A DNA stretch of 10,040 nucleotides, taken from a virus. The notes below the pieces were generated by a model. The model worked only from the letters and a program-made list of their open reading frames with translations. It was not told the origin of the DNA and did no database searches. Each line of letters begins with the position of its first letter. The stretch's first letter is position 1. Where the stretch lies: UHGV virus genome UHGV-0351092; one strand, written 5' to 3'. Below are positions 5,284-5,669 of the stretch, in pieces. The translations under genes were made by a program, and so were the position numbers.

Positions 5284-5669
5284 CCTCACCTGCTACACAG
5301 TGAGAATTTATGAAGTTAATAACAATATGATTTTAAATATATTTTTAAGTACTCACTTTTTAATCCTTATATATACGCAAAAGTGAGGTAAATAGTTAAG
5401 TTTTAGTTAATATCTTGCATGGTGTGTTTTTTAACCTACCTGTTATTTTTATTACCTCATTTCTATTAACTCACCATTCCTCACTTTTGTTCCTCACTTT
5501 TTATTATTCTTGTTCTGCTCCTCAGTCGTTTTCTTTATTGTTGTAATCTGTTGTTTTGCAATGTGTTTTTAACTCCTCACTTTTTGACCTATATACAGGT
5601 GAGAAAGTGAGGAAAACAGGGATGATTTTTAAATATTCCCTGCCCCCTCACTTTTACGCCTCACTTTTT
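5284..5669. repeat. putative replication origin: CCTCACTTTT iteron array in both orientations with an AT-rich spacer, directly 3' of the helicase gene
   Basis: Direct CCTCACTTT(T) copies at 5479-5488, 5492-5502, 5575-5585, 5646-5655 and 5659-5668, with two pairs on 13-bp spacing. Degenerate copies at 5284-5290, 5351-5361, 5455-5464 and 5470-5475. Inverted AAAGTGAGG copies at 5379-5388 and 5604-5612, plus GTGAG at 5300-5304. AT-rich stretch at ~5310-5460. The last iteron overlaps the helicase stop codon (5668-5670). Confidence 0.65.

Follow-up and report, generated by a model that had tools for sequence, protein, structure and literature searches.

A probable iteron-type replication origin beside an RSF1010 RepA-like helicase gene in an Escherichia coli-type phage-inducible chromosomal island

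The locus considered here raises the question of what function is served by a dense array of short repeats that begins at the stop codon of a helicase gene, repA, and extends into the gap of 465 bp (32% GC) between this gene and a gene of the ProQ/FinO family. The array lies in UHGV virus genome UHGV-0351092, of which a stretch of 10,040 nucleotides was analysed (the window, to which all positions refer). An earlier note made from the letters of the sequence had read positions 5284-5669 as an iteron array with an AT-rich block, and these coordinates were found to fit the array well. Positions 5284-5670 are very probably the replication origin of an Escherichia coli-type phage-inducible chromosomal island (PICI), which would be recognised by the adjoining RepA helicase encoded on the minus strand. 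This assignment was made by sequence comparison. The proposed origin layout of iterons with an unwinding element was borne out by the PICI backbone of the element, by the precedent of the island EcCICFT073 (PMC6092414) and by covariation between the winged helix of RepA and the repeats.

The repeat CCTCACTTTT was found in five exact copies on the plus strand, starting at 5479, 5492, 5575, 5646 and 5659, and in one exact inverted copy at 5379-5388. Two more copies had one mismatch each (5351-5360 on the plus strand and 5603-5612 on the minus strand). The earlier count of at least five clean direct copies was reproduced in this way, as were the two pairs on a 13-bp spacing (5479/5492 and 5646/5659) and the presence of degenerate and inverted copies. 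In the sense of the rep gene the iteron unit reads AAAGTGAGG, which equals CCTCACTTT on the other strand. This 9-mer had seven exact copies, all inside 5380-5667, compared to 0.09 copies (maximum of 1) in shuffled sequence. In addition, 12 of the 28 GTGAG/CTCAC cores of the window were located in 5270-5670, which is 4% of the sequence. Five degenerate copies were identified at 5284-5292, 5297-5305, 5455-5463, 5469-5477 and 5596-5604, by which the array reaches 5284. The terminal 10-mer copy (5659-5668) shares one base with the stop codon of repA because the gene is on the minus strand with its TAA at 5670-5668; the array does adjoin the helicase gene and overlap its stop codon as first described, by this single base.

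The array consists of two similar modules that are 70% identical over 77 nt, each of which combines tandem copies with an inverted pair that encloses TATATAC (5575-5612 and 5351-5388). As single-stranded DNA, the proximal inverted pair folds into a hairpin (z = -4.1). The direct sets that flank 5501-5574 are oriented alike, and the opposed copies are local inverted pairs (5575/5604 and 5351/5380). A core origin of approximately 200 bp (5470-5670), ending with the second direct set, was common to all RepA-type elements. The array of the window is approximately 400 bp long and includes a distal module (approximately 5272-5454) which occurs in a minority of the RepA-type elements, while most relatives matched 5470-5700 only.

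The AT-rich stretch that was said to be flanked by the repeats was also confirmed. The GC content was 15-17.5% at 5300-5359, and the 40-mer at 5309-5348 was the least stable duplex of the whole 10 kb with -37.8 kcal/mol compared to a mean of -54.7 kcal/mol (standard deviation of 4.8), which is 3.5 standard deviations below the mean. Iteron sets are placed around AT-rich DNA twice; the sets at 5646-5667 and 5575-5612 are opposite the set at 5455-5500 across 5501-5574, and the pairs at 5351-5388 and 5284-5305 are on both sides of the block with 15-17.5% GC. No perfect DnaA box, integration host factor (IHF) consensus or GATC was found in the origin region, and a scan of it for oriC 13-mers gave no convincing site. 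The absence of DnaA box, IHF and GATC sites fits a self-contained initiator. The features of the region and of RepA are listed in Table 1.

Table 1. Features of the candidate origin, its flanking genes and the RepA protein in the window (ORF, open reading frame).
Feature	Position	Strand	Remarks
ProQ/FinO-family gene	4660..5202	-	Bounds the intergenic region; PerC gene next
Shine-Dalgarno AGGAG (5267-5271) and 16-codon ORF MKTECCVSAVGQRSNQ (5208-5258)	5208..5271	-	Outside the origin
Degenerate third inverted pair	5284..5305	.	CAGGTGAGG 5284-5292 rep-sense, ACAGTGAGA 5297-5305 opposite; outer limit of the array
Candidate DNA-unwinding element, distal module	5305..5350	.	Least stable duplex, 15-17.5% GC
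Distal inverted pair	5351..5388	.	AAAGTGAGT 5351-5359 rep-sense, AAAGTGAGG 5380-5388 opposite, around TATATATAC; paralogous to the proximal pair
Second direct set	5455..5500	-	Exact 5492-5500 and 5479-5487 (13-bp spacing); degenerate 5469-5477 and 5455-5463
AT-rich strand-asymmetric spacer, candidate melting region of the core origin	5501..5574	.	30-35% GC, A-rich on the rep-sense strand
Proximal inverted iteron pair	5575..5612	.	5575-5583 rep-sense, 5604-5612 opposite, half-site 5596-5604; around TATATAC
Rep-proximal tandem iterons R1 (5659-5667) and R2 (5646-5654)	5646..5667	-	AAAGTGAGG, 13-bp spacing, adjoin the TAA stop
repA, initiator-helicase	5668..7080	-	470 aa; Pfam AAA_25, E=3.8e-44
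RepA N-terminal alpha/beta domain	residues ~1-125		Moderate pLDDT; matches no family
RepA motor	residues ~150-326		RecA-fold, RSF1010-RepA-like; Walker A GASGSYKS 173-180
RepA C-terminal winged helix	residues ~405-470		N446 immediately before the recognition helix 447-456 (third helix)

The element that carries the array was identified from its relatives. Positions 1619-10040 matched chromosomal islands of numerous E. coli genomes at approximately 95% identity. One of them, the island of HNSQ2209 (L002), has a tRNA-Gly gene and an integrase gene at its edges and the gene order helix-turn-helix protein (HTH, AlpA-like), AntA, Icd-like, DUF4222, RepA, intergenic region, 257-aa hypothetical gene, ProQ/FinO, PerC and DUF2213. 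The backbone of DUF4222, rep, origin or gap and PerC was common to the window, EcCICFT073 and an EcCIDI14-like island. By these gene and sequence matches the host element has the PICI backbone of the E. coli type, with the integrase and tRNA-Gly known from the islands with approximately 95% identity. The origin region alone matched 347 of 5426 complete E. coli genomes at relaxed sensitivity. In the plasmid collection the rep-ori module was found in 12 records, four of which are listed with 171 kb-1.4 Mb, and the phage collection gave three marginal matches. This near-absence from both collections is expected for an island that replicates only transiently, and a common plasmid or phage replicon was ruled out by it.

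The placement of the array 3' of rep, which had been likened to the staphylococcal pathogenicity islands (SaPIs), is also the layout stated for Gram-negative PICIs, since Fillol-Salom et al. (2018, ISME J, PMC6092414), who defined these islands, described two iteron sets 3' of rep with AT-rich DNA between them, like those of SaPIs. In the same study, EcCICFT073's pri-rep-ori segment maintained a temperature-sensitive plasmid; rep and ori both contributed and deletion of ori reduced replication (PMC6092414).

The layout was conserved in approximately 65 related loci from many Enterobacterales genera, where the stop codon of repA is followed by one to three direct copies, an inverted pair approximately 28-30 bp apart, an AT-rich spacer of 55-60 bp and two to four more direct copies. 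The first direct copies were found 3-24 bp past the stop codon in nearly all of these loci. The '<...>' form of the inverted pair was conserved across the Enterobacterales loci, and most relatives have the AT-rich spacer between this pair and the second set of direct copies. The density of iteron cores was 13-43 per kb after the stop codon compared to 0-1.6 per kb in the gene and the upstream DNA. Intergenic origins of approximately 200 bp were found in L007-L017.

An array in this position might also be an operator or promoter for the downstream proQ-perC genes or for autoregulation of rep, with the winged helix of RepA acting as a transcription factor. The array sits in a one-directional operon with rep on one side and the ProQ/FinO gene on the other, the winged helix is a typical regulator fold and two weak sigma-70-like matches occur at 5316-5363. 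However, sigma-70-like matches were at chance level in the promoter scan (2 found compared to 1.5 in shuffles), and the binding domain forms one protein with a motor of the hexameric-helicase type. No terminator was found after repA in the terminator scan. The array follows repA in RepA-type islands regardless of the next gene, which is a small hypothetical gene plus a single-stranded DNA-binding protein gene, the 257-aa gene or ProQ. Islands with a primase-type (P4-family) Rep on the same backbone have GGTAGAYA/TCTACC repeats at the same place (L003 of cq9, L004 of JNU and EcCICFT073), and in JNU the ProQ gene comes directly after the primase-type origin while the AAAGTGAGG region is absent. 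A ProQ gene without the array in JNU, together with arrays in front of other downstream genes, argues against a proQ regulatory region, and this explanation was considered very unlikely. Across the loci compared, the origin travels with rep and not with the downstream gene.

Assignment of RepA to a helicase family was based on profile and structure comparisons. A family profile search matched the hexameric helicase RepA of RSF1010 (1G8Y, E=3.7e-5, residues 155-326), which was reached by the family profile only, and a phmmer search of the single RepA against PDB sequences gave no match. RepA homologues numbered 1608. A Foldseek search with the full-length AlphaFold2 (AF2) model gave weak matches with Twinkle, T7 gp4 and Rad51, all RecA folds, with a TM score of approximately 0.2 that is informative for the fold class only. 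As judged from these matches, the motor is of the RSF1010-RepA-like RecA-fold, superfamily 4 (SF4)-like type and not of the SF3/SF6 (AAA+) type of the SaPI Reps, which refines the earlier comparison with SaPIs; autonomous replication by this Rep/origin pair, which had been suggested as well, would be expected. The C-terminal domain showed a pattern of three helices and a beta hairpin (residues 409-469) with AF2 pLDDT of 84-92, and was modelled separately too. Its Foldseek matches were histone H1, DtxR/IdeR, LexA, the DnaD N-terminal domain and the MCM8 winged-helix domain with TM scores of 0.55-0.66. From the covariation described below, this winged helix would bind the iterons. No other replication protein, primase or RepC homologue was recognised among the annotated genes of the window.

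The covariation involves residue 446 of RepA and one base of the iteron and was seen across approximately 70 loci. The sample included the E. coli loci and 69 further loci from a scan of one genome per species, mostly of Enterobacterales, and the dominant core was the most frequent GTGNNN 6-mer within the first 230 bp past the stop codon. The E. coli loci had Asn446 with GTGAG and His446 with GTGGG. Over the sample, GTGAG was dominant in all 10 loci with Asn446 and GTGGG in 13 of the 14 loci with His446. GTGGG was also dominant in the 30 of 30 Lys446 loci that had at least four copies, and GTGCG in the 7 of 7 Ser446 loci with at least four copies and likewise in an eighth locus with three copies. 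The sums of RGTG[N]G cores, which include three separately fetched loci, were A 96, G 5, C 0 and T 1 for Asn446; A 3, G 102, C 1 and T 1 for His446; A 0, G 0, C 38 and T 1 for Ser446 (38 of 39 with C); and A 12, G 139, C 5 and T 10 for Lys446 (139 of 166 with G). The RepA of the window has Asn446, and all eight cores in the first 230 bp past its stop codon were GTGAG.

The helicase core (residues 150-395) was used for a neighbour-joining tree, on which at least 13 changes were counted for the residue, at least 12 for the base and 13 for the combined state. As no more than 13 changes suffice for the combined state, residue and base switch together on shared branches. A close pair is given by the window and the HNSQ2209 island (L002), whose RepA proteins are 99% identical with seven differences including N446H. 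Most iterons of L002 read CCCCAC compared to CCTCAC in the window (T to C), with one degenerate proximal copy of L002 that keeps GTGAG. The spacers between the repeats of the distal module were 98-100% identical between these two islands, and the degenerate third pair (5284-5305) reads GTGGG/CCCAC in L002. In L002 and L006, both arms of the distal inverted pair were GTGGG with near-identical flanking DNA. The sole clear mismatch in the first sample was a truncated repA remnant in L003 (cq9), a dead gene which encodes His beside GTGAG iterons.

Among side chains, Asn usually prefers adenine, and His and Lys usually prefer guanine. It is about an even call whether a single residue at the N-terminus of the recognition helix largely sets the specificity of the origin by reading one base (A by Asn, G by His or Lys, C by Ser or Gly), with the PICI/SaPI design placed on a third helicase superfamily, the RSF1010-RepA-like SF4. 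The switches of residue and base, of which there are at least 12 on the tree, could have occurred by point change or by swap of a contiguous cassette of DNA-binding domain and origin; such a swap is possible because the domain is encoded within approximately 100 bp of its own sites. By the sequences compared, the iterons appear specific for their cognate Rep with two exceptions, L093 and L094.

As for the Gly state, an Enterobacter locus (L091; 2617-3067) has Gly at the position of N446 in the motif GRKGFTRW and AAATGCG/GTGCG repeats after the stop codon.

The region could be an origin by descent that is out of use in a decaying island. Orphan RepA-type origins do occur beside repA remnants (L001, L003 and L006), the window has no integrase, and the 16-codon ORF at 5208-5258 resembles a deletion scar. 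However, repA has its full length and invariant Walker motifs, and a database cluster of 258 members matches it at 99% identity. In addition, Asn446 agrees with all eight GTGAG cores and the one clear mismatch between residue and iteron sits in the dead remnant of L003. Such a relic was therefore regarded as quite improbable.

The covariation also bears on a structured RNA, as target or antisense partner of the neighbouring ProQ/FinO-family chaperone, and on a packaging (cos/pac) site, which were together considered extremely unlikely. The rep-sense transcript folded better than shuffles (z = -4.2), the ProQ/FinO gene is adjacent, and hairpins would likewise persist when the two arms of an inverted pair change. 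However, the fold score is trivially explained by the inverted iterons, and the tandem direct copies also change in concert and track a protein residue. The core array was also present in elements without an adjacent ProQ gene. An Rfam scan of 4900-6000 gave only sub-threshold miRNA-hairpin matches on the palindrome, of the kind expected from hairpin-like chance similarity, and no known RNA family. As for packaging, a lambda-type cos end was absent from the window.

Several points weigh against the region being a PICI origin that is read by RepA in the manner proposed. The window ends before any integrase. The validated E. coli PICI origin, that of EcCICFT073, belongs to a different Rep family and function was shown for the EcCICFT073 type only. 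The direct sets of the window are co-oriented across the spacer with separate inverted pairs, whereas SaPI iterons are opposed (PMC9371898). The full-length AF2 model was poor outside the C-terminal domain with a mean pLDDT of 62. Two intact Asn-type loci that were fetched afterwards as a check, outside the first sample, had mixed GTGAG/GTGGG arrays (L093 from Salmonella, 2599-3079, and L094 from a Logan assembly, 2611-3023). These arrays may be recombinant or transitional origins, and with them the code between residue and base is a strong tendency and not absolute. Finally, the DNA that codes for the DNA-binding domain adjoins the iterons, so recombination can move both together, and the association could partly be linkage through recombination of a joint cassette.

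Of the neighbouring genes, the DUF4222 gene (7077-7367) shares 4 nt with the start of rep and is a constant partner of either Rep family, RepA type or primase type (the window and L087, 4946-6996). On the other side of the origin, the first four residues and the ribosome-binding site of the 16-codon ORF match the start of the 257-aa gene in L002 (9611-10384). From this match the ORF is probably the remnant start of the 257-aa gene, left as a deletion scar. At the left end of the window, an ORF of at least 513 aa on the minus strand (2-1540, 35-39% GC) runs off the end. It matched Pfam GmrSD_N/DUF262 (E=6.6e-20) and weakly Schlafen AlbA_2, and positions 1-1650 had no megablast match in the 5426 complete E. 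coli genomes. This ORF resembles a cargo gene of the defence type, placed at the island's far end.

Combinations of origins were also seen. RepA-type origins beside a 3' fragment of repA only were found at L003 (6733-7934), L006 (2489-3690) and L001 (12042-12881). Just upstream, L003 and L006 also have a complete primase-type Rep together with a GGTAGA-iteron origin of its own, which places two origins in tandem. E. coli ETEC1747 has two near-identical islands (L089 and L090, at 0.98 Mb and 1.12 Mb) with an identical RepA accession, in each of which a small ProQ pseudogene separates the origin from proQ. The idea that differing specificities avoid cross-talk of co-resident islands found no support in the one genome examined, ETEC1747, as its two RepA copies are identical.

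For a PICI origin recognised by RepA, a mechanism can be suggested in which binding, melting, self-loading and replication would follow in turn. The winged helix of RepA would bind the 9-10-bp iteron AAAGTGAGG, with N446 reading the A of GTG-A-GG. The many occupied sites, some as tandem pairs spaced by 13 bp and others as inverted pairs that enclose TATATAC, would concentrate RepA on the DNA, where the RSF1010-RepA-like RecA-fold motor could assemble as a ring beside AT-rich DNA. The adjacent AT-rich DNA would then melt, at 5501-5574 or at 5305-5350, and the helicase would load itself without DnaA or a separate loader. Host primase and polymerase would copy the excised island after induction by a helper phage.

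The PICI origin 3' of rep (2018) and a RepA-type Rep in a published PICI are already known, and this copy adds the extended two-module array. The relationship between residue 446 and the iteron base and the RSF1010-RepA-like motor did not come up in paper searches on PICI and capsid-forming PICI (cf-PICI) replication or on Rep winged helices and iterons. For annotation, the assignment would fix the origin and cognate initiator of a widespread class of phage satellites of E. coli and Enterobacterales. It would also give a testable rule for the matching of Rep and origin while satellites shuffle their replication modules, with the prediction that a single N446H change retargets the helicase from GTGAGG to GTGGGG repeats. 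If true, this would be a simple re-programmable initiator/origin pair. The same design, in which the helicase ends in a winged helix and iterons come immediately past its stop codon, recurs on unrelated motors, which bears on the evolution of self-loading helicases.

Among known systems, classical iteron plasmids (pPS10, F, R6K and RK2) similarly have repeated initiator sites beside an AT-rich unwinding element and Rep/iteron pairs that are mutually specific, but their Reps are motor-less WH1-WH2 (winged-helix) proteins, their iterons measure 17-22 bp and are in helical phase, and these plasmids need DnaA boxes and the recruitment of DnaB. A classical iteron plasmid origin was rejected since the Rep of the window is a helicase, its iterons are 9-10 bp on 13-bp spacing and there is no perfect DnaA box. 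IncQ plasmids replicate independently of DnaA, with iterons of 20 bp that are bound by RepC, a separate protein. IncQ RSF1010 resembles the window in its homologous RepA motor (1G8Y, E=3.7e-5) and its iteron-based replication, but has RepC and the RepB' primase as separate proteins, whereas the DNA-binding domain is here fused to the helicase. With this fusion, and no RepB' or RepC homologue among the annotated genes of the window, membership of the IncQ replicons was also rejected.

The alpha protein of P4 is a satellite initiator in which a helicase is joined to a C-terminal winged helix that binds the origin and recognises short repeated octamers. P4 is thus similar as a satellite of enterobacterial phages with a helicase and winged-helix initiator, and the comparison with PICIs is made in PMC6092414. 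It differs in that alpha combines a primase with an SF3 helicase, ori and crr are kilobases apart and the repeats are TGTTCACC.

SaPI Reps have SF3 or SF6 motors and use a C-terminal winged helix to bind the iterons that lie 3' of rep (PMC9371898). In SaPI1, SaPIbov1 and SaPI5 (PMC9371898), the stop codon of rep is directly followed by short iterons of 5-10 bp, which lie to either side of AT-rich DNA, as in the window. The helicase initiator with a C-terminal winged helix that gives origin specificity, as predicted here, and the lack of DnaA boxes are further likenesses. The motors differ, being SF3/SF6 (AAA+) in SaPIs and RecA-fold SF4-like here, and the iteron sequences are unrelated. With an SF4-like motor, a translocation polarity opposite to that of the SaPI Reps would be expected.

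EcCICFT073 shares the backbone of integrase, AlpA-like HTH, Icd-like, DUF4222, rep, origin and PerC, with the origin directly 3' of rep and iterons around AT-rich DNA. It has a P4-family primase-helicase Rep with GGTAGAYA iterons, compared to the RSF1010-RepA-like Rep with AAAGTGAGG in the window. A homologous RepA with His446 and GTGGGG iterons is found in strain 'clone D i2', whose island is like the published EcCIDI14. Overall, as its predicted motor is unlike those of the SaPI and EcCICFT073 Reps, the window appears to present the same origin design on a different motor family.

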